Notes: generated by a model from the letters alone, not told the origin. 64,000 nt of DNA from Mycobacterium sp. (GCA_032159565.1 JAVHWR010000038.1); one strand, 5' to 3'; numbered from the stretch's first letter, positions 21,235 to 38,948 are shown. Translations and numbers: made by a program.

Positions 21235-21323
21235 CACCCCAGGCTCCCGTTTGGCGTCCAGCTGAGCTGGGTAGTTCATCGTCGTCATCTCTTGATGTTC
21301 ATGATCGACTTTGACTAGTGTCG

Positions 21324-21337
21324 GATTGTCAACAAAA
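21324..21337. promoter_or_regulatory. Putative GntR/FadR operator, copy 1 (upstream of MFS gene)
   Basis: GATTGTCAACAAAA; the core TTGTYRACAA recurs at 24203, 27158 and 31671. Confidence 0.65.
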
Positions 21338-21438
21338 CTACGACCTGACCCCGAGGCCGTGCACAACCTGCCCGTCGTGAGTGTGGGAGCCGGCCCGGGG
21401 AAGTGTCCGACAGTGTCATTGACACGAGGAGGCTCCCG

Positions 21439-22827
21439 ATGGGCAGCCCTGATCAACCTCCACACTCGACCGTCAGCACCGAAGACGTACCGCCCGATGT
21501 GCTGAAGAAGGCCGTCGCGGCCTCGGCCATCGGCAACGCGACGGAATGGTTCGACTACGGGATCTACGCATACGGCGTCACCTACATATCGGCGGCGATT
21601 TTCCCCGGGGACACCGAGAGCGCCACGTTGTTGGCGTTGATGACGTTCGCGGTGTCGTTCCTCGTCAGGCCTATCGGCGGGCTGGTATGGGGTCCGCTCG
21701 GCGACCGGATCGGGCGTCGGTCGGTGCTGGCCATCACGATCCTGATGATGTCCGGCGCCACGCTGTGCGTTGGTCTCATCCCGTCCTACGCGATGATCGG
21801 GTTCTGGGCGCCGGTGCTGATGGTGCTGCTGCGCATGATCCAGGGCTTCTCGACCGGCGGCGAGTACGGCGGTGCCGCCACCTTCATGGCGGAATACGCT
21901 CCGCCCCGCAGGCGCGGATTCTTCGGCAGCTTCCTGGAGTTCGGCACGCTGGCGGGGTTCTCGCTCGGTGCACTGCTGATGCTCGGTTTCTCGTTGGTGC
22001 TCAACGACGATCAGATGAGCACCTGGGGGTGGCGGCTGCCCTTCCTCGTTGCAGCCCCTCTCGGCCTGGTCGGTGTCTACCTGCGGTCGCGGCTGGAGGA
22101 CACACCGATCTTCCGCGAACTGGCAGAGTCCGGTGAAACGGAGGAGCGCACCGCCACCCAGTTCAAGGATCTGCTCAGCCGTTACTGGGGGCCGATCCTG
22201 CGGTTGGGCGGCGTTGTCGTCGCACTCAACGTGGTGAACTACACCCTGCTGAGCTATATGCCGACCTACCTCGAGCAGTCGATAGGCCTGTCCGCCACCA
22301 TGTCATTGTTGGTGCCGATCATCGGCATGCTCGCGATGATGGTGTTCCTGCCGATCGCAGGCGGCCTATCGGATCGCGTTGGGCGCAAACCGATGTGGTG
22401 GTTCTCGTTGATCGGCCTCTTCATCGCAGGCATCCCAATGTTCATGTTGATGGGCACCAACGTGGTGGGCGCGGTGATCGGTTTCGCGGTCCTCGGCCTG
22501 CTGTACGTGCCGCAACTAGCCACGATTTCGGCCATGTTCCCGGCCATGTTCCCCACCCATGTGCGCTACGCCGGATTCGCCATCGCGTACAACGTGTCGA
22601 CGTCGATCTTCGGCGGCACCGCGCCTGCGGTGAACGAATGGCTCGTCAACAAGACCGGCGACAATCTGGTGCCCGCCTATTACATGATGGCCGCGTGCGT
22701 CATCGGTGCGATCGCCCTGATCAAGGTGCCCGAGACGACACGCTGCCCGATGAACGGAACGGAGATGCCTGGCACCCCGGAGGCGCCGCCGCAGCTGGAA
22801 TACGAGAAGCAGCCCGGCGCCGTCTGA
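21439..22827 (+). CDS. MFS transporter, MHS/ProP-like
   Basis: IGNATEWFDYGIY, VRPIGG...GPLGDRIGRR, QGFSTGGEYGG and WGWRLPF; GAGGAGG SD. Confidence 0.92.
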   Translation: MGSPDQPPHSTVSTEDVPPDVLKKAVAASAIGNATEWFDYGIYAYGVTYISAAIFPGDTESATLLALMTFAVSFLVRPIGGLVWGPLGDRIGRRSVLAITILMMSGATLCVGLIPSYAMIGFWAPVLMVLLRMIQGFSTGGEYGGAATFMAEYAPPRRRGFFGSFLEFGTLAGFSLGALLMLGFSLVLNDDQMSTWGWRLPFLVAAPLGLVGVYLRSRLEDTPIFRELAESGETEERTATQFKDLLSRYWGPILRLGGVVVALNVVNYTLLSYMPTYLEQSIGLSATMSLLVPIIGMLAMMVFLPIAGGLSDRVGRKPMWWFSLIGLFIAGIPMFMLMGTNVVGAVIGFAVLGLLYVPQLATISAMFPAMFPTHVRYAGFAIAYNVSTSIFGGTAPAVNEWLVNKTGDNLVPAYYMMAACVIGAIALIKVPETTRCPMNGTEMPGTPEAPPQLEYEKQPGAV

Positions 22828-22835
22828 GAAGTTCC

Positions 22836-22897
22836 CGCGAACGTTCCGTACCGGTTCAGATTTTCGGCGAACTATCGCGGGTTGAGGAACGTTCGCG
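22836..22897. repeat. 62-nt palindromic (REP-like) element, copy 2
   Basis: Perfect 12-bp inverted repeat CGCGAACGTTCC/GGAACGTTCGCG; same length as copies 1 and 3; lies between convergent genes. Confidence 0.65.
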
Positions 22898-22908
22898 CGG
22901 GCTCGGGC

Positions 22909-24174
22909 TCACCCCGGGACGACGGCGCCGACGGCGTCGGCCCAGATGCTCGCGGCTTCGTCGACCTGATCACCGGTCACCACCAGTGCCGGGATGAAGC
23001 GCACGACCTGGCCCCACGCGCCACAGGTCAGCAACAGCAGGCCGCGGCGAGCCGCCTCCTGCTGGGCGGCGGCGGCGGTGACCGGATCGGGCTTTCCGTC
23101 GGCGTCACGGAACTCGTTGCCGATCATCAGCCCGAGGCCGCGTACGTCGGCGATCTGGTCGTGCTTGTCGGCCACCATTTGCAGCGCCTCCTTCAGCTGC
23201 GCCCCACGCTGCGCTGAGTTGTCGACGAGCCCTTCATCGCGGATTACGTCGAGGGTCGCCAGCGCGGCAGCACAGGCAACCGCGTTGGCGCCGTACGTGC
23301 CGCCCTGGGATCCCGGCCATGCCTTGGCCATCAGCTCAGACGACGCGGCGATTGCCGACAGCGGGAATCCGGAGGCAAGGCCCTTGGCGGTGATGAGGAC
23401 GTCGGGTTCGGCGTTGAAATGCTCACCGCCCCAGAACTTTCCGGTTCGTCCGAAGCCGGTCTGCACCTCGTCGACCACCAGCAGGATGCCGTGCTGGTCG
23501 GCGCGTTCCCGCAGTCCGGCGAAGAACCGGTCGTTGGCGGGCACATAGCCGCCCTCGCCGAGTACCGGCTCGACGAGGAACGCGGCGGTGTCGGCGGGCG
23601 ATGTCAGCGTCTGCAGGATGTAGTCGAGCTGGCCGAGCGCGAAATCGGTGGCCTGCTCGACCGGCCAGCCGAAGTGGGTGGGATCGGGGAACGGTGCGAC
23701 GTGGACGCCTGCCATCAACGGAGAGAAGCCGGAACGGAACTTCGTTCCGGACGTGGTCAGTGAAGCGGCCGCCACCGTGCGACCGTGGAAGCCGCCGTGG
23801 AAGACGATGACATTCGGCCGTCCGGTCGCCTGCCGGCTCAATCGCAGCGCCGCTTCGACGGCCTCACTGCCCGAGTTCGCGAAGAAGATGCGGTCCAAGC
23901 CCTGCGGCAGCACTTCGCCCAGCCGGTCAACGAGCGCCAGCAGCGGGCGGTGCATGACGGTGGTGTACTGGCCGTGGATGAGCGTGCCGACCTGGCGTTG
24001 TGCGGCCTCGACCACTCGAGGGTGACAGTGCCCGGTACTGGTCACGCCGATGCCCGCGGTGAAGTCGAGGTATCTGCGGTCGTCTTCGTCGTACAGCAGC
24101 ACACCCTCTCCGCGGGCAGCGATGACGCCGGTCGCTTGTTTGAGGACCTGTGAGAGCTGTGCGGACGCGGCCAC
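22909..24174 (-). CDS. Class III PLP aminotransferase (GabT/DoeD-like, diaminobutyrate or 4-aminobutyrate type)
   Basis: DFTAGIG, GFHGRT, VDEVQTGFGRTG, ITAKGL and GGTYG; GTG 24174 with a purine-rich SD. Confidence 0.92.
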   Translation of the reverse strand: MAASAQLSQVLKQATGVIAARGEGVLLYDEDDRRYLDFTAGIGVTSTGHCHPRVVEAAQRQVGTLIHGQYTTVMHRPLLALVDRLGEVLPQGLDRIFFANSGSEAVEAALRLSRQATGRPNVIVFHGGFHGRTVAAASLTTSGTKFRSGFSPLMAGVHVAPFPDPTHFGWPVEQATDFALGQLDYILQTLTSPADTAAFLVEPVLGEGGYVPANDRFFAGLRERADQHGILLVVDEVQTGFGRTGKFWGGEHFNAEPDVLITAKGLASGFPLSAIAASSELMAKAWPGSQGGTYGANAVACAAALATLDVIRDEGLVDNSAQRGAQLKEALQMVADKHDQIADVRGLGLMIGNEFRDADGKPDPVTAAAAQQEAARRGLLLLTCGAWGQVVRFIPALVVTGDQVDEAASIWADAVGAVVPG

Positions 24175-24202
24175 GCTTCTTTCCCTTGCCTGTTGATTGG
24201 TA

Positions 24203-24216
24203 GATTGTCGACAATC
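24203..24216. promoter_or_regulatory. Putative GntR/FadR operator, copy 2 (divergent promoter)
   Basis: Perfect palindrome GATTGTCGACAATC overlapping TANNNT -10 candidates on both strands. Confidence 0.8.
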
Positions 24217-24255
24217 AGCGTATCGGACGGACCGGCGTACGGCGAAGGGGTAGCG

Positions 24256-25722
24256 GTGAGCGAGCACGACGAGGCGAGGGTCGTCCAGACCGTCGAGAAG
24301 CGACTGTTCATCGACGGCAAGTGGCTCGACGCATCCGAGGGACGGACCTTCGACGTCGTCGATCCCGCCACCGGAAGGACCCTCTGTTCGGTCGCCGAGG
24401 CGTCCCCGGCAGACGGCAGGGCCGCACTCGACGCGGCCGTCGCCGCCCAGCCGGACTTCGCGGCGGTTTCACCACGCGAGCGCGCAAACATACTGACCCG
24501 CTCTTACGAGCTGCTGCACGAGCGGATCGACAACCTTGCGCTGTTGATGACGTTGGAGATGGGCAAACCGGTCGCCGAAGCACGAGGGGAGATCGCCTAT
24601 GCCGCAGAATTCTTCCGCCACTTCGCCGAAGAGGCCGTGCGCATCGACGGCGGTTACCAGACGGCGCCTGCAGGCGGAGCGCGCTTCCTGATCGCGCGCC
24701 AACCCGTCGGCCCGTGCCTGCTGATCACGCCGTGGAATTTCCCGATGGCGATGGGCACCCGCAAGCTGGGCCCGGCCATCGCCGCCGGGTGCACCAGTGT
24801 GATCAAGCCCGCTCCTCAGACACCGCTGTCGATGCTGGCGCTGATGGACATCCTGGCCGAGGCCGGGCTGCCCGCGGGCGTCGTCAACTGCATCACCGTC
24901 ACGGAAGCCGGCCCGGTCATGGAGCCGCTGATCCGGTCGGGCCTGGCCCGGAAACTCTCCTTCACCGGCTCCACCCAGGTCGGTCGGCTGCTGTTGGAAC
25001 AGTGCGCCGAGAAGGTCCTGCGGACCTCGATGGAACTCGGCGGGAACGCGCCGTTCATCGTGTTCGACGACGCCGACCTCGACGAGGCCGTCGAGGGTGC
25101 GATCGCGGCCAAGATGCGCAACATGGGGGAGGCGTGCACCGCGGCCAACAGGATGTATGTGCAATCCTCGGTCATCGATGAATTCGGACGCCGGCTGGCC
25201 GCGCGGATGGCTTCGTTGTCGGTGGGCCGTGGCACCAACGATGGTGTCGCCGTCGGTCCCCTCATCGATAAGGCCGCGCTCAACAAGGTCGAGACGCTCG
25301 TCGCCGATGCCGTCGGGCGCGGCGCGACCGTCCTCACCGGGGGATCGGCGCCCGGTGGCGATGGCTTCTTCTATCCGCCCACCGTGCTCACCGGTGTGCC
25401 ACGCGACGCCGAGATGTGCGATCAGGAGATCTTCGGTCCGGTGGCGCCGCTGACGGCCTTCGAGACGGAGGCCGAGGCGGTCGCGGCCGCCAACGACACC
25501 GAATACGGCCTTGTCTCCTACGTTTTCACCAACGACCTGAGGCGTGCATTGCGGGTTGCGGAAGCCCTGGAGAGCGGCATGGTCGGGCTCAACCAGGGCG
25601 TGGTGTCAAATCCGGCAGCGCCGTTCGGCGGCATCAAGCAGTCGGGTCTGGGCCGCGAAGGTGGCTTGGTCGGAATCGACGAGTTCCTCGAGACCAAATA
25701 CATCGGCATAGCGATGCGGTGA
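24256..25722 (+). CDS. NAD(P)-dependent semialdehyde dehydrogenase (GabD/DoeC-like)
   Basis: ITPWNFP, FTGSTQVG, MELGGNAP, catalytic GEAC, EIFGP and PFGGIKQSGLGREG. Confidence 0.93.
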   Translation: MSEHDEARVVQTVEKRLFIDGKWLDASEGRTFDVVDPATGRTLCSVAEASPADGRAALDAAVAAQPDFAAVSPRERANILTRSYELLHERIDNLALLMTLEMGKPVAEARGEIAYAAEFFRHFAEEAVRIDGGYQTAPAGGARFLIARQPVGPCLLITPWNFPMAMGTRKLGPAIAAGCTSVIKPAPQTPLSMLALMDILAEAGLPAGVVNCITVTEAGPVMEPLIRSGLARKLSFTGSTQVGRLLLEQCAEKVLRTSMELGGNAPFIVFDDADLDEAVEGAIAAKMRNMGEACTAANRMYVQSSVIDEFGRRLAARMASLSVGRGTNDGVAVGPLIDKAALNKVETLVADAVGRGATVLTGGSAPGGDGFFYPPTVLTGVPRDAEMCDQEIFGPVAPLTAFETEAEAVAAANDTEYGLVSYVFTNDLRRALRVAEALESGMVGLNQGVVSNPAAPFGGIKQSGLGREGGLVGIDEFLETKYIGIAMR

Positions 25723-25727
25723 CGCCC

Positions 25728-26405
25728 CTAGATGCCGACGTGTTCGGCTCCGTCGACTGTCTTTTCGAGCGTGAGCCGATTGACGGCATCGTCCATGTGG
25801 GCGGCCAGCAACCGGTCGACGAGTTCGCGGTCGCCTTTGCGGATCGCGTTCGCCAGCGCCCGGTGCTCCTTGTCGCGAACCTCGGATCTGGCGTAGGTCT
25901 CGTCGAGGGCATGGATGCACATCCGGGTTTCGGTGATGAAGGTCTGGTGCATCCGGGAGAGCCGCGGGCTCTTGGCGAGCTTCAACAGCCGCTCATGGAA
26001 GGCGATATCCAGCTCGCTGACATCGGCGGGAGTCTCTGCTTCGGCCATCTGGTCGACGATCCCCAGCAGCTCCTTGCCCGCCGTCCGGTGGTCACCGTCG
26101 AGGATTCTGCGGGCGGCCGCTCGTTCGATCGCTTCGCGCGCGCTGTACATGTCGCGGACGTCGTCGGGGGTCATGTCGATCACGAACAACCCGCGGTTGC
26201 GGATCGACACCAGGAGTCCCTCCTGGGTGAGGCGCTGCATGCCCTCCCGCAATGGGCCGCGGCTGACTCCGAGCTTGCGCGCCAACTCGGCTTCGCCCAA
26301 CTGTGCGCCGGGCTTCAGCTCGCCGTGAGCGATCGCCTGGCGCAGCTTCTCGGCGATGATGCTGGGCGTCGACTCCTGAACGAGCGGCCCGATGAAGCTG
26401 CTCAT
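25728..26405 (-). CDS. GntR-family regulator (FadR subfamily, FCD domain)
   Basis: GELKPGAQLGEAELARKLGVSRGPLRE HTH; ELDIAFHE and EHRAL FCD motifs; ATGA overlap with the upstream racemase gene. Confidence 0.93.
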   Translation of the reverse strand: MSSFIGPLVQESTPSIIAEKLRQAIAHGELKPGAQLGEAELARKLGVSRGPLREGMQRLTQEGLLVSIRNRGLFVIDMTPDDVRDMYSAREAIERAAARRILDGDHRTAGKELLGIVDQMAEAETPADVSELDIAFHERLLKLAKSPRLSRMHQTFITETRMCIHALDETYARSEVRDKEHRALANAIRKGDRELVDRLLAAHMDDAVNRLTLEKTVDGAEHVGI

Positions 26406-27121
26406 CGGCGCGCCTCGAACACCGCGCCCAGCCCGGGAAGCACCGGTGGGGAGCCGAGCAGTTCGAGTCCTTTCCACACGGTGACTTGGTTCGCCGTGAG
26501 CACGGGCTTGCCGACGGCCGCTTCCAGCTTGTCGACGATCGCCAGCGTGTGCATCGCGGTGTCCGGGACGAGCACTGCCTCGGCCCTCGGATGATCGGCG
26601 GCAGCCACCATCGCGAGCACCTGCTCGGGGCGAAGAGTGCCCACCTCGGCTGCGGTGTAAATGCCGTGGCTACCCATCGAGACAACCTCGGCGCCCCCTG
26701 CGGTCAGGAAGGCGACGAAGTGCTGCGCTACGTCGTCGGGGTAGGACGCCGCCACCGCGACCCGGCTGATGCCGAGATGCCGCAGCGCGTCGACGAAGGC
26801 GATCGAGGTCGACGACGCGGGGACCCCTGCCGCGGCCTCGACGGCCGACGCCTGCGCCGACGCGCCCTGCGGACCGAACACGAAGCTGCCCGAGGTGCAC
26901 GCCCACATCACGGCGTCCGGCTTCTCGACGGCCAACAGGGCCGCGCCGTCGGCGAGCCGTGCTTGGCTGCCGAGGTCGAGCAGGGCATCGACACGATGTG
27001 CGTCCTCGCCGACCGACGTGATCGCCACCGGCAAACGCACGGCGCCGTCGATGCGCGCCTCGAGGGCGGGAAAGTCGTCCTCGGCACTGTGGCCGGGGTA
27101 GAGCAGGCCAACCGTTGGCAT
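26402..27121 (-). CDS. Asp/Glu racemase / maleate isomerase superfamily protein (Cys/Asp variant)
   Basis: WACTSGSF, PASSTS, GKPVLTANQ; the second catalytic site reads PDTAM rather than SCTN. Confidence 0.85.
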   Translation of the reverse strand: MPTVGLLYPGHSAEDDFPALEARIDGAVRLPVAITSVGEDAHRVDALLDLGSQARLADGAALLAVEKPDAVMWACTSGSFVFGPQGASAQASAVEAAAGVPASSTSIAFVDALRHLGISRVAVAASYPDDVAQHFVAFLTAGGAEVVSMGSHGIYTAAEVGTLRPEQVLAMVAAADHPRAEAVLVPDTAMHTLAIVDKLEAAVGKPVLTANQVTVWKGLELLGSPPVLPGLGAVFEARR

Positions 27122-27157
27122 GTCATCTCCCTTGGATCACGCTGACCGGAATAGGTA

Positions 27158-27171
27158 GATTGTTGACAATG
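27158..27171. promoter_or_regulatory. Putative GntR/FadR operator, copy 3
   Basis: GATTGTTGACAATG, preceded by GGTA as in copy 2; overlaps a minus-strand TAACAT -10 (27169-27174). Confidence 0.78.
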
Positions 27172-27251
27172 TTAGCCCGCGCGAGCTACGACGCGGGACA
27201 CCTCGCCGAACTGCTCGCCGACGCTTCATCTCGGTAACCCCCTCCCGCCGT

Positions 27252-28526
27252 TCACGCGGACTTGTCAGGGGCCAACAGTCGTAGCGCCGTCAGCGTGTAG
27301 GTCCTGGCCGCAACGATCAATTCCTCGAGCGCCACTGACTCGTCGGGACGGTGCGCCTGCTCCGCGACCGATCCAGGCCCGAGGACGACCACCGGCACGT
27401 CGAGGTCGCGGGCGACGAACCCGCCGTCACACGCAGCGGTCCAACCGCCGGGCGCCAAGGTGGGCCCTCCCGCATCGGCGACTGCCGCGCCGACGGTGCG
27501 CGCCAGCGGCGACTCCGACGGCGTCTCGAAGGCCGGCATCTCCATCGGCATCGAGACCTCCACGGTCAGGCCGCGGTCGGCCAGACGCAGCGCCTCGATC
27601 CGCGCACGCAGGTCGTCGAGCACAGTCGCGGCCGACTCGCCCGGCAGGATCCGGCGATCGGCGACCACGGCGCATTCGGCAGGCACCACGCTGCCGCTGT
27701 TCCCACCCTTGATCTGGCCGACGCTCCACGTCGCGGGACCCAGCAAGGGGTGGGGACGGTCCGCCAGTTGGGCGTGCATGCGTTCGATCTCGGCCACCAC
27801 GGCGGCCGCGCCGTAGATTGCGTTGGCGCCATCGCCGGGATTGCCTGCGTGACAAGCAGTTCCGTGAACATGCACCCGCAGGTACGAGGCTCCGCGCGCG
27901 CCGACGATGGTCTGCAGGTCGGTGGGCTCGGCGGTGATGCATCCGGCGAACGACGCCTGTACCGAGGACACATAGGCGCGGATACCGGTCCCGTTCTCCT
28001 CTTCATCCACCAGTGCAGCCAGTTCGACGGGACCGCTCAAACCGGCGCCGCGAAGTGCCGCCATCGCCGAAACGCACGCTGCCAAACCACCTTTCATATC
28101 GGCGGCACCACGCCCGTATATGCGGCCGCCCTCGACGGCAGCGCCGAACGGGTCCTTCGTCCAGCCCTCGCCGACGGGAACGACGTCGGTGTGGCCGAGC
28201 AGCAGAAAACCAGGGCCCTCGCCTGGTGGCCCCGCCTGTCCCGCTCCTCGCGTGCGCCCTGCCTGTCCCGCTCCTCGCGTGCGCCCTGCCTGTCCCGCTC
28301 CTCGCGTGCGCAGTGTGACGCGCAGGTTGTTGCGGCCCGGCGTCACCGGCTCCTCATGAACGGCGAGCCCGAGTTCCGCGGCGGCTGCGGCGAGTACGGC
28401 GACCGTGGCCGCCTCCTCCCCGGGCGGGTTCTGCCCGTCGGCCCGCACCAACGACCGGGTCAGCTCGATCAGATGGTGCTCGTCGATCTTGTCCAGCACA
28501 GACCGTTCGGCGGCGGACACGCCCAT
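27252..28526 (-). CDS. M20 family (ArgE/DapE-like) metallo-deacylase
   Basis: GHTDVVP, GRGAADMKGG, VDEEE, AEPT and AHRPDE metal and catalytic motifs; ATG 28526. Confidence 0.92.
   Translation of the reverse strand: MGVSAAERSVLDKIDEHHLIELTRSLVRADGQNPPGEEAATVAVLAAAAAELGLAVHEEPVTPGRNNLRVTLRTRGAGQAGRTRGAGQAGRTRGAGQAGPPGEGPGFLLLGHTDVVPVGEGWTKDPFGAAVEGGRIYGRGAADMKGGLAACVSAMAALRGAGLSGPVELAALVDEEENGTGIRAYVSSVQASFAGCITAEPTDLQTIVGARGASYLRVHVHGTACHAGNPGDGANAIYGAAAVVAEIERMHAQLADRPHPLLGPATWSVGQIKGGNSGSVVPAECAVVADRRILPGESAATVLDDLRARIEALRLADRGLTVEVSMPMEMPAFETPSESPLARTVGAAVADAGGPTLAPGGWTAACDGGFVARDLDVPVVVLGPGSVAEQAHRPDESVALEELIVAARTYTLTALRLLAPDKSA
28234..28310. repeat. In-frame 27-nt tandem repeat (about 2.9 copies) inside the M20 gene
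   Basis: Unit GCCTGTCCCGCTCCTCGCGTGCGCCCT; encodes RTRGAGQAG x3 on the minus strand. Confidence 0.95.
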
Positions 28527-28531
28527 GCCGG

Positions 28532-29731
28532 TCAGCCCTTTGCGAGCAGATCGACGGCGCGGCGCAGCCGGGCGACCCCCTGGTGGATCCGGTCGGGCGG
28601 CGTCGAGGCGAAACACAGCCGCAGCGCATCACCGAACCGGCCGGACGGTGAGAACGCCGAGCCGGGGATGAACGCGACACCTTCGGCAAGGGCAGGCTCG
28701 AAAAGCGCTGCGCTGTCGACATTGTCGAGAGTGACCCAGCAGAAGAAGCCGCCTTGGGGATCAGTCCACCGGGCGCGGTCGCTGAAGTGTTCGCGTAACG
28801 CCGCGTGCATCGCCTCCTTGCGCCGCCGGTATTCGGCGCGCTGGGTCACCAGATGGTGGTCGAGATGTCCGCCGGTGAGAAAGCCCGCGAGCAGGCGTTG
28901 CGCAGGCAGGTTCGTGCACGTGTCCATCGCCTGCTTGGCGTTGATCAGCAGCGGCTGCAGCTCGGGAACGGTGTCGACCCAGCCGACCCGCAGCCCCGGC
29001 GCGACGATCTTCGAGAAGGTGCGGACCGCGAACACCAGCGGGTCGCCACCTCCGAGTTCGCGCAGCGTCGGCAGCGGCTCGCCCGCAAACCGCAACAAAC
29101 CGTAGGGGTCGTCGTCGATCACCATCGACCCCCATTCACGGGCAAGCTCGAGGAGCCGCAGCCGGCGCTCCAACGACAGCGTCACCCCCGAAGGGTTCTG
29201 GAAGGTCGGGATCGTATAGATCGCCTTGGGGGTGCGCCCGGCTTCGCCGACCAGGCGCTCGAGCTCGACGATGTCCATCCCGTCGTCGTCGACCGGGACC
29301 TCCAGCAGTGTCGCCCCGTAGGACAGAGCGGTCGCGCTGCCGTTGGTGTAGGTGGGCGATTCGACGGTGACGAGATCGCCTGGGTCGACGAAGATCTTGC
29401 AGAACAGATCGAGACCCTGCATGCCGCCCGCCGTGATCGTCAGGCGCTCGGCAGTGGTCTCATCGCTGGTTCCGCGCAGCATCTCCAGCAGCGCGGCGTG
29501 CAGCGGCGGATCGCCTTCCGTCGCGGCATAGTCATAGGCGTCGGGGGAACTCAGTTCGACGGCCGCGATGCCGGCCAGGATCTCCGACGGCACGGCCTCG
29601 GCCGCCGGACTGCCCATCGCGAGCCGGACCACGTCGTGCGATTGCTTCTGCAGCAGTGACGTGCTCGAGTCGATGACCGATCCGACCAGCCCGGCGGCGC
29701 GGGCGGCGAACGGAAGTGTGGATGTGGTCAC
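28532..29731 (-). CDS. Class I PLP aminotransferase (2-aminoadipate/MocR-like domain, no HTH)
   Basis: YTIPTFQNPSG, IDDDPY, TFSKIVAPGLRVGW and LRLCFA. Confidence 0.92.
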   Translation of the reverse strand: MTTSTLPFAARAAGLVGSVIDSSTSLLQKQSHDVVRLAMGSPAAEAVPSEILAGIAAVELSSPDAYDYAATEGDPPLHAALLEMLRGTSDETTAERLTITAGGMQGLDLFCKIFVDPGDLVTVESPTYTNGSATALSYGATLLEVPVDDDGMDIVELERLVGEAGRTPKAIYTIPTFQNPSGVTLSLERRLRLLELAREWGSMVIDDDPYGLLRFAGEPLPTLRELGGGDPLVFAVRTFSKIVAPGLRVGWVDTVPELQPLLINAKQAMDTCTNLPAQRLLAGFLTGGHLDHHLVTQRAEYRRRKEAMHAALREHFSDRARWTDPQGGFFCWVTLDNVDSAALFEPALAEGVAFIPGSAFSPSGRFGDALRLCFASTPPDRIHQGVARLRRAVDLLAKG

Positions 29732-29734
29732 GGG

Positions 29735-30907
29735 TTACCTCCAGACCGTGAGTTCCTGTGGCAGACCTGTCAGGCGCTCGGCGCCTGCGTCGGTGACCAC
29801 CACCGGCTCGGACAATTCGTAGCCCCAGTCGTCGTTCCAGATACCGAGAATGACGTGAAACGCCATGCCTGCGACGAGTTCGGTGGTCTCACCTGGGCGC
29901 AGGCTCACGGTTCGCTCACCCCAATCGGGCGGATACCCGATGCCGATCGAATAGCCGATCCGGGACTCCTTCTGCAGCCCATGGGGTTTGATCACCCGGT
30001 CGAACGCCCGATGCACGGCGCTGCCGTCCGCGCCGGGCCGGATGGCCGTCAGCGTGGCTTCCATGGCATCGGCGACCACCTTCGCGGTGTCGGTGAGCCG
30101 GGACGGCGGTTCACCGAGCATCACTGTTCGCGCCAGCGGCGCGTGGTAGCGGCCGAACACTCCGGCCAGCTCGATCGTGGTGGCTTCGCCGAGTTGAAAG
30201 GTGTGTTCGGACCAGGTCAGATGAGGGGTGCCTGCGGCCTTTCCGGTCGGCAGCATCGGAACAACCGCCGGGTAGTCACCGCCGTGCTCGGCTGTGCCGC
30301 AGGCCTGCGCCGCCATGATCTCGGCGACGACATCGCATTGCCGCCTGCCTGGGCGTACCCCCTCGCACGCGGCGCGCATCGCCTTTTCGGCAATCGTGCC
30401 CGCTATACGCAACTGCTGTATCTCGAAGGCGGACTTGACGACTCGTACCCAGTTGACCAACTCGCCTGCGTCGACCAGCCGGTTTGAGTGCAGTCCGTGC
30501 TCCAACGCCTGATACCCGCGTGGAGAGAAGAAGTGCGAGTCGGCTTCGACGCCGACTGCTTCGCCCGCGGGTACGAGCCCGCGTACCTCTTCGGCGATCC
30601 AGTCGAACGGATGCACATCCCGCCGGTGCACCAACTCTTCGGGGTATCCGTGGATGTGGTCATCGTGGAGGTTGGCGGTGAAGCCCGCGCCTGCGGCGTC
30701 CATCGCCCTGGTGAACAGATGCGGCGGGCCGTCGGCGCCGACCAGCAAGCACTGCGGCGTGTAGAACGACCATGCGTTGTAGCCGGTGAGATAGAACAGA
30801 TTCGCCGGATCGCACACGATCAGAGCGGCAAAGTCCTTCTGCGCCATGGCTTCCCGCACACACCCCAACCGGTCGGTGTACTCCACGTTGATCGCACCGT
30901 CCGGCAT
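29735..30907 (-). CDS. Ectoine hydrolase EutD/DoeA-like (M24 pita-bread fold)
   Basis: LTGYNAWSFY, VNWVRVVKS, GGDYPAVVPMLPTG, PHLTW, IELAG, RYHAPLART and GYPPDWGERTVSLRP closely match recalled EutD/DoeA motifs. Alternative start GTG 30913. Confidence 0.85.
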   Translation of the reverse strand: MPDGAINVEYTDRLGCVREAMAQKDFAALIVCDPANLFYLTGYNAWSFYTPQCLLVGADGPPHLFTRAMDAAGAGFTANLHDDHIHGYPEELVHRRDVHPFDWIAEEVRGLVPAGEAVGVEADSHFFSPRGYQALEHGLHSNRLVDAGELVNWVRVVKSAFEIQQLRIAGTIAEKAMRAACEGVRPGRRQCDVVAEIMAAQACGTAEHGGDYPAVVPMLPTGKAAGTPHLTWSEHTFQLGEATTIELAGVFGRYHAPLARTVMLGEPPSRLTDTAKVVADAMEATLTAIRPGADGSAVHRAFDRVIKPHGLQKESRIGYSIGIGYPPDWGERTVSLRPGETTELVAGMAFHVILGIWNDDWGYELSEPVVVTDAGAERLTGLPQELTVWR

Positions 30908-30909
30908 CT

Positions 30910-31632
30910 TCACCGCTCCAGCAGCTGCTGGCCGGGGCCGACCGCCTTGCGCCCGAGGACGCGTAGCGCCGACCACACGGTCACCTGGTTGGCGGTCAGC
31001 ACCGGTTTGCCCAGCTCGCGTTCCAGCGTCGCGATGACGTCATAGGTCGGCAGATTGGTGCAGCTGATGAAGACGGCCTGCGCATCGGCGTTGTCGGTGT
31101 CGCGCACGAGCCCGGCGGTGACGTCGTAGGGCACCGTCCAGATGTCGGAGGTCAATCCCAGTCCTGCGGCGGCGACCACCTCGATCCCGGCTTCGGCCAG
31201 GTAGGCGGTCAGGCCCACGGTCAGCTCGGCGATGTAGGGCGTGACGGTGGCGATGTGGGCGATGTCGAGGTGGTGCAGCGCCTCCAGCAGCGCGCCGCTG
31301 GTTGTCACGGCTGCGGGCGCACCGGCCTCCGTCATGGCGGCCACCAATGCGGCCTGACCCTCGAGGCCGCCGATGAAGCTGCCCGATGTGCACGCATACG
31401 CCATCACCAGCGGCGAGACCGCGCGAACGTCGTCGAACCCCTTGGCGACCAGGGCCGGGTCGGAGATGTGCACAGCCATTTCGAGCGTCGCAGGCATCGG
31501 CGCATACGCCATGCGGGTGATGTGCAGGCTGACGTCGTCGGGCATCCATCGCCAGAGCTCCCTGTCGAGCGCGAAGTCGAACGGTGTGACGACTCCTATC
31601 CCGGCTTGCTCGACCGACGGGGAATGGCCCAT
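30910..31632 (-). CDS. Asp/Glu racemase / maleate isomerase superfamily protein (Cys/Cys, EutA-like)
   Basis: YACTSGSF and ISCTNL both retain Cys; GKPVLTANQ. Confidence 0.88.
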   Translation of the reverse strand: MGHSPSVEQAGIGVVTPFDFALDRELWRWMPDDVSLHITRMAYAPMPATLEMAVHISDPALVAKGFDDVRAVSPLVMAYACTSGSFIGGLEGQAALVAAMTEAGAPAAVTTSGALLEALHHLDIAHIATVTPYIAELTVGLTAYLAEAGIEVVAAAGLGLTSDIWTVPYDVTAGLVRDTDNADAQAVFISCTNLPTYDVIATLERELGKPVLTANQVTVWSALRVLGRKAVGPGQQLLER

Positions 31633-31670
31633 GGCCCCAGTCTGGGGGGACGGTGTGGCGACCGCAAGCC

Positions 31671-31684
31671 GATTGTTGACAATC
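31671..31684. promoter_or_regulatory. Putative GntR/FadR operator, copy 4 (divergent promoter)
   Basis: GATTGTTGACAATC contains TTGACA (31676-81), with TAGCCT at 31700-05 on the plus strand and TACGAT on the minus strand. Confidence 0.8.
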
Positions 31685-31712
31685 GTACGGTTTCGTTCCT
31701 AGCCTCGGACCC

Positions 31713-32750
31713 GTGCCTCGAACACGACCGGTTGTCGCGGTCCTGTGCGAGAAGGCGACCGACCGTCCACCCGGTCTCGACGGCCTCGAGGTGGAGTTCC
31801 GCTACTGCGCGGCCGACGGCTTGGCAGACGCTGTCCACGGGGCGCAGGCACTCTTGCTCTGGGACTTCTTCTCGAAGGCCGTGAGCGACGTCTGGGCCGA
31901 GGCCGACCAGCTCGAGTGGATCCACATCACCGCCGCGGGCGTTGACACCCTTCTGTTCGATGAGCTACGGAACTCCGACGTCGTGGTGACCAACGCGCGC
32001 GGAATATTCGACCGGCCGCTGGCCGAATACGTGCTCGGCGCCGTGATCGCCAACGCCAAGGACAGCTTGACGAGCTTCGACCTGCAGCGCCGCCATGAGT
32101 GGCGGCACCGCGAAACCCGCAGCATCACCGGCGCCACTGCTCTGGTGGTGGGTACTGGCGGCATCGGGCGCGAAATCGCGAAGCTGCTGCGGGCGGCAGG
32201 CATGGTCGTTCGGGGCGCAGGCCGCCGTGCCGTCGCAGACGACCCCGACTTCGGCGAGATCGTCGACAGCGCCGACCTGGCGGCGGAAGCGGGCTGGTGC
32301 GATCACCTGATCCTGGCCGCGCCGCTGACCGCAGCGACGCGTGGCCTCGTCGACGCGCGCGTTCTATCTGCCATGAAGCCCGACGCGCATCTGGTCAACA
32401 TCGCCAGGGGGCCGATGGTCGACGAGGTCGCTTTGCTGGACGCGCTGACACAGGGAAGCATCGGCGGGGCGACCCTCGACGTGTTCGACACCGAACCGCT
32501 GCCTGCCGGTCACCCGTTGTGGGACGCGCCGAATGTGACGGTCACCGCGCACATGTCGGCCGACGCCGTCGGCTGGCGCGAGACCCTCGCCAGCCAGTTC
32601 GCGACGAACGTCCGGCACTGGCTGGCCGGCGAGCCGATGATCAATGTGGTGGACAAGAAGCTCGGGTACGTGTCCGGAGCCGGAGGGCCGGCGACATCAA
32701 GACCCGGAGCCGGAGGGCCGGCGACATCAGGACCCGGAGCCGCGCGATGA
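31713..32750 (+). CDS. D-2-hydroxyacid dehydrogenase family protein
   Basis: TAAGVD, TNARG, VVGTGGIG, VNIARG, DVFDTEP and TAHMS (Arg/Glu/His triad). Confidence 0.93.
   Translation: MPRTRPVVAVLCEKATDRPPGLDGLEVEFRYCAADGLADAVHGAQALLLWDFFSKAVSDVWAEADQLEWIHITAAGVDTLLFDELRNSDVVVTNARGIFDRPLAEYVLGAVIANAKDSLTSFDLQRRHEWRHRETRSITGATALVVGTGGIGREIAKLLRAAGMVVRGAGRRAVADDPDFGEIVDSADLAAEAGWCDHLILAAPLTAATRGLVDARVLSAMKPDAHLVNIARGPMVDEVALLDALTQGSIGGATLDVFDTEPLPAGHPLWDAPNVTVTAHMSADAVGWRETLASQFATNVRHWLAGEPMINVVDKKLGYVSGAGGPATSRPGAGGPATSGPGAAR
32674..32742. repeat. In-frame 30-nt tandem repeat at the dehydrogenase C-terminus
   Basis: CCGGAGCCGGAGGGCCGGCGACATCARGAC x2 plus a partial copy; encodes GAGGPATSRP/GAGGPATSGP. 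Confidence 0.92.
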
Positions 32751-34153
32751 TCGCGTCGGCGACGGAACTGGTCGAGGGCTACCGGAAAAAGACGATCTCG
32801 CCCGTCGAGGCGGCGGAGGCCGCGCTGAAGGCCATCGACACCTACGACGGCCGGGTGAACGCCTTCGTCCTGGTCGATCGCGACGGCGCACTGGCCGCCG
32901 CGAAGGATTCGGAGGAGCGTTGGCAGTCCGGGGAGCCGCTTGGACCCGGCGACGGTGTGCCGACCTCGATCAAGGACGCGTTGTGGACGCGCGGATGGCC
33001 GACGCTGCGCGGCAGCGAACTGATCGATGCGGCGGGACCGTGGGACGAGGATGCGCCGTGTGTGGCGCGGCTGCGCGAGACGGGCGCCGTCATCCTCGGC
33101 AAGACCACGACGCCGGAGTACTCGTGGAAGGGAGTCACCGACTCCCGACGACACGGCGTAACGGGTAACCCGTGGGATCCGGCGATGACGTCAGGTGGAT
33201 CCAGCGGAGGCAGCGCTACGGCGGTGGGGCTTGGCATGGGCCCGTGGTCGGTCGGTACGGACGGCGGCGGGTCGGTTCGCATCCCTGCGGGGTTCACCGG
33301 AACGGTCGCGCTGAAGCCGACATACGGCCTGATTCCGTTTTATCCGCCGAGCCCGTTCGGCACGCTGTCGCACGCCGGGCCGATGACCCGGACCGTGCGG
33401 GACGCCGCCGCTCTGATGGACGTGATCACCGGATTCGACGCGCGCGACTGGGCGGCCATGCCGACGCCGGTGACATCGTTCCTGTCTGGACTCGACGACG
33501 GGGTGGCCGGACTGCGCGTCGGTTACTCATCCGATCTCGGCTTCGTCCGAAACGATCCTGAGGTCGATGTCGCCGTCCGCGCAGCCGTCGACGTCCTGGC
33601 GAGCGCCGGGGCCGAGGTGGAGGAGGTCGACCCGGGGTTCAGCGACCCGGTGGATGCCTTCCACGTCCTGTGGTTCGCCGGCGAGGCCAAGGTGTTGTCG
33701 TCCTACGGGGCCATCGACGACCTCGCCGACCGGATCGATACCGGACTGCACCGCACCGCGCTGATCGGATTGCGCTACTCGGCGTCGGACTATTTGGACG
33801 CCATGGCGGTCCGGATGTCGCTGGGCGGGCTGATGGGGCGGTTCCACCAGCGCTACGACGTGCTCGTGACGCCGACGCTGCCGCTGCCCGCGTTCCCCGT
33901 CGGCATAGATGTGCCGGGTGGGTCGGTGTCGCCGGACTGGACGAGTTGGACGCCGTACACCTACCCCTTCAACCTGACACAGCAGCCCGCGCTCAGCGTG
34001 CCGTGCGGGTTCACCGGCGCCGGATTGCCGATCGGATTGCAGATCGTCGGCGCCCGGCACACCGACGCACTGGTGTTGCGTGTTGGCCAGGCCTACCAGT
34101 CAGCGACCGACTGGCACCAGCGCACACCGGCACTTCTGGCCGAGGAGGTTTGA
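32747..34153 (+). CDS. Amidase signature family enzyme
   Basis: GVPTSIKD, GKTTTPE, GGSSGGS, GTDGGGSVRIPA; ATGA overlap. Confidence 0.94.
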   Translation: MIASATELVEGYRKKTISPVEAAEAALKAIDTYDGRVNAFVLVDRDGALAAAKDSEERWQSGEPLGPGDGVPTSIKDALWTRGWPTLRGSELIDAAGPWDEDAPCVARLRETGAVILGKTTTPEYSWKGVTDSRRHGVTGNPWDPAMTSGGSSGGSATAVGLGMGPWSVGTDGGGSVRIPAGFTGTVALKPTYGLIPFYPPSPFGTLSHAGPMTRTVRDAAALMDVITGFDARDWAAMPTPVTSFLSGLDDGVAGLRVGYSSDLGFVRNDPEVDVAVRAAVDVLASAGAEVEEVDPGFSDPVDAFHVLWFAGEAKVLSSYGAIDDLADRIDTGLHRTALIGLRYSASDYLDAMAVRMSLGGLMGRFHQRYDVLVTPTLPLPAFPVGIDVPGGSVSPDWTSWTPYTYPFNLTQQPALSVPCGFTGAGLPIGLQIVGARHTDALVLRVGQAYQSATDWHQRTPALLAEEV

Positions 34154-34154
34154 G

Positions 34155-34655
34155 ATGAGCAGGTTGATCACGGTGTCGCTGGACAAGCGCGGAGTGAGTT
34201 GCGTTGCCCGGATGCTCGACGACGAGGCACCCCGGACCAGCGCCGCGGTGTGGGACGCGCTTCCGCTGTCGGCGCCGGTGTTTCACGGCAAGTACGCCAG
34301 AAACGAGATCTACACGCTGCTGCCTGCGTTCGCGGCCGCCGACCCCGGGAAGGAGAACACCACGATCACGCCGATTCCGGGCGACCTGTGCTGGTTCTCG
34401 TTCGACTCCGATGTCCTCGGCAATCCGGCGTACGGCTACGAAAACACCACCGGCACAGGGACAACCGGTGCCATCGTCGACCTTGCGTTGTTTTACGGGC
34501 GGAACAACCTATTGATCAACGGGGACCAGGGCTGGGTGCCTGGCAATGTCTTCGGCGCGGTGGTCGAGGGACTCGACGAGATGGCTGAGGCGTGCCAGGA
34601 CCTGTGGATGGGCGGCGCACGCGGCGAGACACTGAGCTTTCAGCGCCGCGACTGA
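34155..34655 (+). CDS. DUF3830-like (cyclophilin-like fold) protein
   Basis: 166 aa; APRTSAAVWDALP, HGKYARNEIY, ENTTITPIPGDL and LFYGRNN. Family recognised from memory. Confidence 0.78.
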   Translation: MSRLITVSLDKRGVSCVARMLDDEAPRTSAAVWDALPLSAPVFHGKYARNEIYTLLPAFAAADPGKENTTITPIPGDLCWFSFDSDVLGNPAYGYENTTGTGTTGAIVDLALFYGRNNLLINGDQGWVPGNVFGAVVEGLDEMAEACQDLWMGGARGETLSFQRRD

Positions 34656-34713
34656 CGGCGGGGGCCACGTGCTGCTTCCGGCTATGACCTGCTTACCCGC
34701 CTCTTCGTCGCCG

Positions 34714-34775
34714 CGCGAGCGTGCGCAATTGCACGAAATGTGACGGCGAGTCGCGTGCAGACACGCCCGCTCGCG
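34714..34775. repeat. 62-nt palindromic (REP-like) element, copy 3
   Basis: CGCGAGCGTGCG...CACGCCCGCTCGCG; lies between convergent genes. Confidence 0.8.
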
Positions 34776-34815
34776 GTGCGAGGTTACAGCGGGTTTTCGG
34801 GGGCGGGGGAAATCC

Positions 34816-35715
34816 CTAGCGCTTGATCGCGCTCAGGTAGCTCATTTCGGTGAAGAAGCCGATGGCTCCGTCCTCGGGAAACTCGAAACCGTTGTCGGCA
34901 TATGCATCCGCCATCTTTCGCGCCGACACATCCCAGCCGTGACCCTTGAGGTACTCGATGACGTCATTGCGTTTCTCGTGATAGATGAGGTCGCCCATCT
35001 CGAAGTCGTGGCCGTACTGCTTCAGCCGATCCGAGATCAGCTGCGACCGCTCGTCGGAGAACATGCTGACATCGGGGATGTGCTCGGTGGCCAGCCGACT
35101 GCCCGGCGCACTGAGCTCGTCGATCCTGTCGAACAACAGGTCCTGGGCCTCCGACGGAAGATAGATGAGCAGGCCCTCGGCAATCCATGCGGTGGGCTGC
35201 GACGGGTCGAAGCCGTTGTCCCGCAATGCTTTCGGCCAGTCGTCGCGAAGGTCGATCGCGACGGTGCGTCGGTCGGCCGTTGGCTGCGCGCCGAGGTCGG
35301 CGAGCGTCGTGGACTTGAAGTCGATCACCTCCGGTTGATCGACCTCGAACACTGTCGTTTCGTCCGGCCACGGCAATCGATAGGCCCGAGCGTCCAAGCC
35401 CGCCGCCAGAATCACCGCCTGACGTACCCCTGCAGCCGCCGCATCGGTGAACAACCTGTCGAAATGGCGGGTGCGGACCGCCATGCCCTCTGCGGCGCGC
35501 TGAATGTTGAATCGCGGATCGATGTCCTCCAGCGTGATCTCGCCGTCAAGCGCCTTAGTGAAGACGTCCAGGCCGACCGCACGCACTAACGGCTCGGCGT
35601 ACGGATCGTCGATCAACCCCTCGCGATCGGCCAGCACGCGCTGCGCGGCCACCATCGTGGCGGTGGCGCCGACGCTGGACGCGAGATCCCACGAGTCGTT
35701 GTCGGTGCGGGCCAT
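34816..35715 (-). CDS. SAM-dependent methyltransferase, mycobacterial LCM-like family (Rv0726c/Rv0731c type), copy 1
   Basis: [50 protein letters not shown] and EGLLIY. Confidence 0.93.
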   Translation of the reverse strand: MARTDNDSWDLASSVGATATMVAAQRVLADREGLIDDPYAEPLVRAVGLDVFTKALDGEITLEDIDPRFNIQRAAEGMAVRTRHFDRLFTDAAAAGVRQAVILAAGLDARAYRLPWPDETTVFEVDQPEVIDFKSTTLADLGAQPTADRRTVAIDLRDDWPKALRDNGFDPSQPTAWIAEGLLIYLPSEAQDLLFDRIDELSAPGSRLATEHIPDVSMFSDERSQLISDRLKQYGHDFEMGDLIYHEKRNDVIEYLKGHGWDVSARKMADAYADNGFEFPEDGAIGFFTEMSYLSAIKR

Positions 35716-35723
35716 CATGCTCC

Positions 35724-36617
35724 TTACAGGGTTGCCGTGAGGTAGCCGGAGTCGCCGATGAACCTGATGAGCTCGTCGTCCGGCACCTCGAAACCGTTGG
35801 CGGCGAACGCCTCCGCGGTTGAGATAGTAGACACTTGCCAGCGGTGCGAGGACAGGTATTCACGGGCCGTATTGCGGTCGCCTGAGTAGAACAACTCCGA
35901 CAACTTGATGTCCGAGCCGGCCCGACGCGATCGTTCGTCCAGCTTTTCTGTCCAGTCAGCCGGCATGGACGTCATGTCCATGTGTTCGGTGGCCAACCGA
36001 CTGCCAGGGGCGGACAGCGCGGTGACGTTGTCCAGGAGACAATCCTGCGCATCCGGTGGCAGATAGACCAAAAGGCCCTCGGCGATCCACGCGGTGGGCC
36101 GGGTCGGGTCGAAGCCCGCCTCGCGTAATGCGGCCGGCCAATCGTCGCGCAGGTCGATGGCGACCGTCTTGCGGGTGGCTCTCGGAAGCGCACCGAGGCC
36201 GTCGAGCGTCGTTGTCTTGAACTCGATGACTTGCGGTTGATCGACTTCGAAGACCACCGTGCCCGCCGGCCATGGAAGCCGGTAGCCGCGGGTGTCCAGT
36301 CCCGCCGCCAGAATCACCGCCTGCCGAATCCCGGCTTCGGAAGCGGCAAGGAAGAAGTCATCGAAAAACCGTGTCCTGACCGCGATCTGCTCACTCATCG
36401 CCTTGCGGTTCATCACCGGGTTGCCGTTGAACGCCTCGCCGTCGACGATCCTGATGAAACTGTCCACGCCGACCGCGCGGACCAGCGGCTCGGCGAACGG
36501 ATCGTCGAGTAGCGGGTCGGGCCCCCGAGAGGCCACCGCTCGAGAGGCCGCCACAGCGGTGGCGGTAGCGCCAACGCTCGAGGCCAGGTCCCAGGTGTCG
36601 TTGTCTGTTCGTGCCAT
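35724..36617 (-). CDS. SAM-dependent methyltransferase, same family, copy 2
   Basis: Same motif set ([21 protein letters not shown]). Confidence 0.93.
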
Positions 36618-36624
36618 CGAATGC

Positions 36625-37644: not shown

Positions 37645-37648
37645 GGTT

Positions 37649-37711
37649 TCATTCCTCGGCTCCCGCTCGCTCCGGTCCTCGCTTCGCCGCGATCCTCACT
37701 CGCACTCCCTT
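37649..37711 (-). repeat. MIRU-like intergenic unit carrying a mini-ORF
   Basis: AAGGGA SD, then GTG...GAA TGA (MRIAAKRGPERAGAEE), ending 4 nt before the next ATG. Confidence 0.55.
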
Positions 37712-38641: not shown

Positions 38642-38948
38642 GAAGAAAACCCCTGTCGTTAGGCTATCCGTCAATTACTTAGCTGATGTAACGAGCTGTC
38701 ACCGACTCTACGCTTTTATCCTGAAAAGTCGTCTGACCTCAGTGCCTGCACCAGCGGATGCGGAGTAGACAACCACCAACTGTTACTCTCGTAGACTGCG
38801 TGACTCCACAGGCTGGGAGCAGGTCAGATGGCCTGGGCCGACAAGCACCCAGGCTGCCCGGGGCACTCGCACACGACTTAACCGACGCTGGTAGAGACCA
38901 GCCCCATTTGGCACGCCGCGATATGAGCCCGGCTGCGCAGGAGGAAGA

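Follow-up and report, generated by a model that had tools for sequence, protein, structure and literature searches.

We analyzed a 64,000-nt stretch of Mycobacterium sp. DNA (GCA_032159565.1 JAVHWR010000038.1; hereafter the window) and found that a 13.4-kb island within it is a predicted mycobacterial gene set for uptake and breakdown of an ectoine-like nitrogen compound under one regulator, with an uncharacterized enzyme set common to many Actinomycetota. The cluster is organized around a 390-aa M24-fold hydrolase of the DoeA family (29735-30907, minus strand). We propose that this accessory island is induced by its substrate and serves to degrade a solute of the ectoine type that the cell scavenges from soil, with ectoine, 5-hydroxyectoine or both as the most likely compounds; this proposal could equally prove right or wrong. 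The hydrolase, an operator shared by all transcription units of the island and the recurrence of the genes in other Actinomycetota are part of the evidence.

The M24-fold hydrolase and its relatives

The family that best matched the M24 protein was TIGR02993, the NCBIfam model for DoeA/EutD, which hydrolyzes ectoine (EC 3.5.4.44; curated cut-off 613 bits), with 404.5 bits versus 71 for the next non-DoeA model. In a search of the PDB, the protein scored 335 bits against DoeA (6twj/6twk), with residues 8-388 of 390 aligned, versus at most 76 bits against prolidases, and no creatinase was found among its PDB matches at E<1e-10. Its architecture (Pfam Creatinase_N and Peptidase_M24, the latter with the pita-bread fold) aligns over the full length with the solved DoeA of H. 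elongata. The WSFY, PHLTW and IELAG motifs reported in an earlier reading of the window (the original prediction) are all present in the M24 protein, and WSFY and PHLTW also occur in H. elongata DoeA. The metal ligands of P. furiosus prolidase, which we take to be D209, D220, H284, E313 and E327 (P. furiosus numbering), are replaced at all five positions: by E/P/Y/I/S in the M24 protein and by E/P/Y/M/T in DoeA. Since both proteins have other residues at these positions, the M24 protein presents a DoeA-like, non-peptidase active-site pattern. On these sequence comparisons, the M24 protein belongs to the DoeA family and not to the prolidases, and the prediction of a DoeA-type chemistry is well supported. 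We found no paper describing the structure of DoeA or its ligand contacts.

Several features of the hydrolase weigh against ectoines as its substrate. Its score of 404.5 bits fails the equivalog cut-off of TIGR02993 (613 bits) and its identity to H. elongata DoeA is 42%. We built a maximum-likelihood tree from 90 representatives clustered at 50% identity and the sequences of the loci studied here. The window protein grouped with Kribbella, Dactylosporangium and M. moriokaense (clade A), and this clade joined a clade B of proteins from other Mycobacteriaceae genera (50-54% identical) with 99% support in the Shimodaira-Hasegawa-like approximate likelihood-ratio test (SH-aLRT; 13 rows). Clades A and B together stand apart from the well-supported clade of H. 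elongata DoeA, and this joint clade and the DoeA clade both sit in a poorly resolved radiation of many DoeA-like lineages. We then took the 106 columns that are invariant across seven sequences of the DoeA clade and checked them in clades A and B: 68 were kept and 38 were not, with 12 fixed differences. At several of the columns that were not kept (W49Y, H188M, I191A), the residue of clades A and B is also that of the other family members, and it is the DoeA clade that deviates. Moreover, DoeA homologues at 30-45% identity were placed in non-ectoine contexts by Schwibbert et al. (PMC3187862), and a DoeA-like homologue of Oceanobacillus lies in a non-ectoine gene context that offered no clear lead.

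The separate clade, the score under the cut-off, the 12 fixed differences and the existence of DoeA-like genes in non-ectoine contexts would all suit a cluster of the same architecture and reaction logic (import, opening of a ring or amide by the DoeA-like hydrolase, deacylation, two transaminations and oxidation) acting on another nitrogen substrate: a cyclic amidine other than ectoines, a lactam, or an N-acylated diamino acid (a derivative of N-acetyl-diaminobutyrate, -ornithine or -lysine). This is a real possibility from which we nonetheless lean away: no alternative compound is positively indicated, and every characterized relative of the hydrolase acts on ectoines. The original prediction had described an actinobacterial variant of ectoine-type catabolism. 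The part that stands is the cluster around a DoeA-family hydrolase; ectoine or hydroxyectoine as the substrate is a candidate assignment at this level of identity, below the cut-off and in a distinct clade, and the related cyclic amidine that the prediction gave as its alternative may be the substrate instead.

It is far less probable that the cluster degrades peptides or creatine, with a conventional creatinase or Xaa-Pro dipeptidase as its M24 protein. The domains Creatinase_N and Peptidase_M24 and the names of its homologues would point that way, as the NCBI/UniRef records listed for the clade call its proteins M24 family metallopeptidase, creatinase or Xaa-Pro peptidase. However, the five prolidase metal ligands are all replaced, the PDB scores separate prolidases from DoeA by a wide interval (76 or less versus 335 bits, with no creatinase at E<1e-10), and the island contains no sarcosine or urea genes. 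The grouping that the original prediction named as refuting was not observed: by these scores, the M24 protein groups with DoeA and with neither Xaa-Pro peptidases nor creatinases.

Operator, gene layout and conservation

The palindrome ATTGTYGACAAT, of the T.GT...AC.A type that is usual for operators of FCD-type GntR regulators, was found in four promoter regions that precede all six transcription units of the island. Site 1 (21325-21336; TTTGTTGACAAT, one mismatch) lies ~67 nt 5' of the start of an MHS-family symporter of the major facilitator superfamily (MFS; 21403-22827, plus strand). Site 2 (24204-24215; ATTGTCGACAAT, a perfect palindrome) lies in the divergent promoter of a GabT/ArgD-like class III (omega) aminotransferase (22909-24174, minus strand; Aminotran_3) and an aldehyde dehydrogenase (ALDH) resembling succinate-semialdehyde dehydrogenase (SSADH; 24256-25722, plus strand; Aldedh). 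Site 3 (27159-27170; ATTGTTGACAAT) lies 5' of an operon encoding a first EutA/arylmalonate-decarboxylase/maleate-isomerase-like protein (EutA-like 1; 26402-27121, minus strand) and the GntR/FCD transcription regulator (25728-26405, minus strand; Pfam GntR winged helix-turn-helix and FCD domains). Site 4 (31672-31683; ATTGTTGACAAT) lies in the divergent promoter of a D-2-hydroxyacid dehydrogenase, followed by an amidase and a DUF3830 gene, and of a second EutA-like gene (EutA-like 2; 30910-31632, minus strand), which heads the operon of the M24 protein, a class I aminotransferase (AT1) and an M20 deacylase.

The motif yielded seven strand-matches at these four promoter sites versus 0.15 expected, and none of 100 shuffles reached seven. 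The exact 12-mer core GATTGTYGACAA is absent elsewhere in the 6.24-Mb genome. The operator is also conserved at the corresponding promoters of clade A, of clade B and of a further locus (L036), which span Mycobacteriaceae relatives, Dactylosporangium, Kribbella, other genera and another family. The shared palindrome, the genome-wide uniqueness of its exact core and its conservation in relatives thus tie the six units to the local GntR/FCD regulator. We infer from these sequences that the six transcription units form one conserved regulon to which GntR is predicted to bind.

Genes within the units are tightly packed. Gaps of 2, 3 and 5 nt separate EutA-like 2 from M24, M24 from AT1 and AT1 from M20; the D-2-hydroxyacid dehydrogenase and amidase genes overlap by ATGA, with 1 nt from the amidase stop to the DUF3830 start, and EutA-like 1 and GntR overlap by 4 nt. 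Genes were called using codon-position GC (the G+C of the window is 65%) and Pfam/NCBIfam scans. These scans bore out every gene listed in the original prediction, but several true starts lie inside the longest open reading frames (ORFs) and had to be moved inward. Two of its labels were also narrowed. What it had called a semialdehyde dehydrogenase is an SSADH-like enzyme of the ALDH superfamily and not of the Asd type. The two EutA-like racemase-fold proteins are members of the superfamily and not EutA orthologues, because they score ~109 bits against a cut-off of 318 (TIGR02990).

The gene grouping is kept in 17 genomes or metagenome-assembled genomes (MAGs) of Mycobacteriaceae as well as in Dactylosporangium and Kribbella. 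Because it is conserved across these genomes and shares one operator, the grouping is not due to chance. At clade A loci, the dehydrogenase-amidase-DUF3830 genes are divergent from EutA-like 2-M24-AT1-M20, and the EutA-like 1-GntR pair is also present. Most of these loci carry in addition a fused FAD/Fe-S dehydrogenase of ~1000 aa between M20 and EutA-like 1 (FAD-oxidase/4Fe-4S/CCG, GlcD+GlcF-like; 13673-16624 in L013 and 14229-17270 in L025). This gene is cleanly missing at 27122-27251 of the window, and no close homologue was found genome-wide (top match 25% identity).

Homologues of the M24 gene belonging to clade B were found in 53 of 292 good-quality genomes of the family. M24, AT1, M20, hydroxyacid dehydrogenase, class III transaminase, ALDH, MFS and GntR genes were associated at the six clade B loci sampled, mostly in the order class III transaminase, FAD/Fe-S dehydrogenase, ALDH, (GntR), M24, AT1, M20, MFS, hydroxyacid dehydrogenase. 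A further actinobacterial family (L036) presents dehydrogenase-M24-AT1-M20 with DUF3830 and a class III transaminase. Protein names place Rhodococcus, Gordonia, Williamsia, Arthrobacter, Sinomonas and Cryobacterium in the clade. Overall, the recurrent core consists of the M24 hydrolase, an alpha-transaminase of the LysN/kynurenine aminotransferase (KAT) type, the M20 deacylase and the D-2-hydroxyacid dehydrogenase; its usual companions are the omega-transaminase, the SSADH-like dehydrogenase, the FAD/Fe-S dehydrogenase, the ProP-like MFS and GntR. Core and operator recur together in Kribbella, Dactylosporangium, Rhodococcus, Gordonia, Williamsia and Arthrobacter. At L036 (3690-8285), the dehydrogenase-M24-AT1-M20 operon has the operator in its promoter, which faces a gcvT-gcvH-sdaA-gcvP operon; glycine or serine may be products, or this neighborhood may be a coincidence, and it offers no clear lead.

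A chance juxtaposition of unrelated metabolic genes without a common pathway, which might be read from the three strand switches of the island and from the Kribbella copy, where no MFS, class III transaminase or ALDH gene lies alongside, is hardly credible against an operator restricted genome-wide to these promoters, its conservation with the gene set across orders and the tight or overlapping gene junctions.

The block is bounded at 21235-34815 by sppA on the left (19438-21234, plus strand) and by methyltransferase genes and secY on the right. In two complete genomes of the same genus, sppA directly adjoins the methyltransferase and secY genes; the intervening 13.4 kb of the window therefore represent an inserted, accessory island. 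The M24 gene was found in none of 22 sampled genomes of the genus, and the same island occupies the same site in M. moriokaense, M. agri and many soil MAGs. The island borders have no direct or inverted repeat of at least 8 nt in common, and we observed no shift in composition (67.3% GC in the island versus 65-66% in the flanks). Between the island and secY, the window contains four tandem LCM/TIGR00027 S-adenosylmethionine-dependent methyltransferase paralogues (34816-38674; 46-59% identical), where other genomes of the genus have two or three. The third of these genes contains, on the opposite strand, a 30-nt tandem repeat of 4 copies (37252-37370).

Proposed route and candidate substrate

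In the route that we propose, the MFS symporter would import the solute. The nearest characterized transporter family of this presumed importer is ProP (428 bits, cut-off 544), and ProP carries ectoine, proline and betaine. The DoeA-family hydrolase, whose M24 fold is free of metal ligands, would open the cyclic amidine to N-acetyl-diaminobutyrate (N-acetyl-DABA), from which the ArgE/DapE-type M20 enzyme would take off the acetyl group in place of the missing EutE/DoeB. The class III transaminase and the SSADH-like dehydrogenase would convert the omega-amino group into a carboxylate, as Atf and Ssd do. The best models of these two proteins are the generic GabT/ArgD and SSADH, both under their cut-offs (573 bits versus 828 for the dehydrogenase), and the likeness to Atf/DoeD and Ssd/DoeC is one of family level; in the known pathway, Atf and Ssd come from these families (PMC5924519).

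The alpha-amino group would be removed by AT1 (28532-29731, minus strand), a class I aminotransferase of the LysN/kynurenine-AT II type (PDB 1x0m, 266 bits) with the FSK catalytic-lysine motif. We also considered AT1 as a degenerate MocR/EnuR regulator and ruled this out: it has no helix-turn-helix domain and is nearer to true KAT/LysN enzymes (266 bits) than to GabR (~70 bits). The NAD-dependent D-2-hydroxyacid dehydrogenase (31713-32750, plus strand) would handle the resulting 2-oxo or D-2-hydroxy acid, and relatives add the fused FAD/Fe-S D-2-hydroxyacid dehydrogenase at this step. A 30-nt tandem repeat of 2.3 copies (32674-32742) lies in the C-terminal tail of the former enzyme.

The remaining proteins may act on isomeric or hydroxylated intermediates, e.g., the gamma-acetyl isomer or hydroxy-DABA. 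They comprise an amidase-signature amidase (32747-34153, plus strand; 726 bits against NF004815, exceeding its cut-off of 506), the cyclophilin-like DUF3830 protein (34155-34655, plus strand; PDB 3kop, 266 bits), a family that is mentioned in no paper we found, and the two EutA-like proteins. Both catalytic cysteines are present in EutA-like 2 (CTSGSF, SCTNLPT). EutA-like 1 keeps the first (CTSGSF) and presents an Asp at the second position (VPDTAMHT), a pattern also found in M. moriokaense and Kribbella. The second position is a Cys in maleate isomerases and racemases, and the pattern of EutA-like 1 mirrors arylmalonate decarboxylase in reverse.

Deacylation and the omega- and alpha-steps could proceed in more than one order. 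In the first, N-alpha-acetyl-DABA would be converted to N-acetyl-aspartate semialdehyde, N-acetyl-aspartate, aspartate and finally oxaloacetate. In the second, the N-gamma-acetyl isomer would be alpha-transaminated, reduced to a D-2-hydroxy acid, deacetylated, omega-transaminated and oxidized to D-malate, which the FAD/Fe-S enzyme of the relatives would then oxidize. The second order would employ each conserved enzyme once and is speculative.

The class I transaminase, the hydroxyacid dehydrogenase and the FAD/Fe-S dehydrogenase are conserved yet have no role in the known ectoine route, which adds to the doubts raised by the hydrolase. The island and its widespread actinobacterial relatives might encode an undescribed route, in which the product of a DoeA-like hydrolase is degraded via alpha-transamination and D-2-hydroxy acids, or the degradation of a cyclic amidine other than ectoine; we regard this pair of options as rather unlikely. 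One order conceivable for such a route leads from 4-acetamido-2-oxobutanoate to the D-2-hydroxy acid, which after deacetylation, omega-transamination and oxidation would give D-malate, and from there to oxaloacetate by the FAD/Fe-S dehydrogenase. If either were true, it would provide a first functional context for DUF3830 and for the Cys/Asp EutA-like protein. A different nitrogen substrate would likewise account for the conservation of these three enzymes, the amidase and DUF3830 outside the ectoine route, and for the fact that no Ehu, Ueh or BCCT transporter was seen at the clade A and clade B loci examined. On the other side, the ProP-like transporter, the ArgE-like deacylase and the Atf/Ssd-like pair suit ectoine well, and ectoines are abundant solutes of Actinomycetota. 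From the sequence evidence as a whole, ectoine/hydroxyectoine appears as the leading substrate candidate, with roughly a balanced chance of being the true one.

No match to EutE/DoeB (TIGR02994) was found in the 99.99%-complete genome. The M20 ArgE/DapE-family deacylase of the island (27252-28526, minus strand; TIGR01910, 206 bits, cut-off 217.6) has a precedent in three genomes of other Actinomycetota classes, which present EhuB-EhuC-EhuD-EhuA, DoeA and an ArgE-type M20 in succession (L037 5753-11844; L038 5943-12798; L039 8629-14746). Like the island, these modules place a DoeA-family hydrolase together with an M20 enzyme, and no EutE-type (aspartoacylase-type) deacetylase was identified among the flanking ORFs scanned. 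Unlike that of the island, their hydrolases are 58-61% identical to DoeA, fall in the characterized clade and lie directly 3' of an Ehu importer of the ATP-binding cassette (ABC) type. The one scanned (L038) exceeds the cut-off (651.7 versus 613 bits), as do the scanned EhuA, EhuB and EhuD for their own equivalog models, with EhuC at its cut-off. The M20 after each DoeA passes the acetylornithine-deacetylase model; these enzymes are only 28-32% identical to that of the window, which also counts against our proposal. Because of this precedent and because the window genome has no EutE/DoeB, the M20 enzyme may perform the N-acetyl-DABA deacetylase step, and it can reasonably be taken to replace EutE/DoeB. 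The M20 gene of the window contains a 27-nt tandem repeat (28229-28311; 3.1 copies, 98% match) that inserts 27 in-frame residues (RTRGAGQAG x3) just N-terminal of the GHTDVVP metal-binding strand; this insert is missing from five homologues.

We further analyzed the distribution of the ectoine synthase EctC. None was found in the genome of the window (checked with positive controls), whereas EctC is present in 13 of 22 other sampled genomes of the genus and in 253 of 301 genomes of the family (84%). The organism would thus be a scavenger and not a producer. All 53 genomes with the related clade B cluster have EctC, but this co-occurrence does not discriminate, since most genomes of the family have EctC and that of the window has none. 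One genus has ectC at a distance of 11-17 kb from its clade B M24 gene, in 18 of 18 genomes. The single genome examined there (G276 C1 3835159-3849407) presents ectA, ectB and ectC, with a RecQ-type helicase and a PfkB kinase intervening before the cluster. This proximity is inherited synteny and thus weak evidence.

Comparison with known systems and significance

The proteobacterial systems comprise doeABCD of H. elongata and eutABCDE-ssd-atf of R. pomeroyi and S. meliloti, with EnuR and the Ehu or Ueh importers. The island resembles them in its ring-opening hydrolase of the DoeA family, whose active site is altered in the same way and free of metal ligands, in its class III transaminase and SSADH-like dehydrogenase of the Atf and Ssd families, and in its EutA-superfamily proteins. 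Transporter and regulator genes are linked in both, as expected of a substrate-inducible system. The differences are also numerous. The island hydrolase belongs to another clade, at 42% identity and under the equivalog cut-off; EutE/DoeB is missing from the genome, with an M20 deacylase present instead; and the presumed importer belongs to the MFS, being neither of the ABC type nor a tripartite ATP-independent periplasmic (TRAP) transporter. Domain scans of the block revealed no EutB-type (PALP), EutC-type (OCD) or MocR-type gene, and regulation would instead rely on a GntR/FCD protein with its own palindrome. The lack of EutB, EutC, EutE and EnuR had been anticipated by the original prediction and was confirmed, with ProP-like MFS, M20 and GntR genes found instead and EutE missing genome-wide. 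Finally, the island adds the LysN-like transaminase, the D-2-hydroxyacid dehydrogenase, the amidase and DUF3830, to which relatives add the FAD/Fe-S dehydrogenase.

Reviews up to 2018 and 2021 confined ectoine consumers to Proteobacteria (PMC5924519; PMC8739950). A more recent study (PMC13188858; AEM 2026) describes putative, unvalidated ectoine clusters of Bacillota and Actinomycetota that lack eutE and contain an M20 amidohydrolase, an aldehyde dehydrogenase and an MFS protein, with the Gram-positive cluster types pucR-eutBCD-atf, abgB-thrA-adh and eutD-mfs. The island is similar to these clusters in presenting an EutD homologue without EutE, together with an M20-family amidohydrolase, an aldehyde dehydrogenase and an MFS protein, in the lack of EnuR and in its putative status. 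It differs in lacking eutB, eutC, thrA and the PucR regulator and in possessing a GntR/FCD regulator, a class I transaminase, a D-2-hydroxyacid dehydrogenase, an amidase, DUF3830 and two EutA-like genes. The cluster type of the island, its regulator and its operator are not described in the portion of PMC13188858 available to us. Because putative Gram-positive clusters are already reported there, the novelty of the island is lower than the original prediction implied.

Our literature search found no biochemically proven case of ectoine catabolism in Gram-positive bacteria. To our knowledge, this catabolism has been demonstrated in Proteobacteria only. Few microbial stress solutes rival ectoines in abundance, and the Actinomycetota count among their major producers. 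If our proposal is true, it would correct the names under which these proteins appear in databases (metallopeptidase, creatinase and Xaa-Pro peptidase, among 1,800 clusters or more), would show EutE replaced by a non-orthologous M20 enzyme and would give DUF3830 its first functional context. Should the substrate not be ectoine, the cluster would point to an unknown yet common nitrogen compound of soils. If it is ectoine, the island would constitute a candidate, directly testable in culturable strains, for the recycling of nitrogen-rich ectoines by soil Gram-positives.

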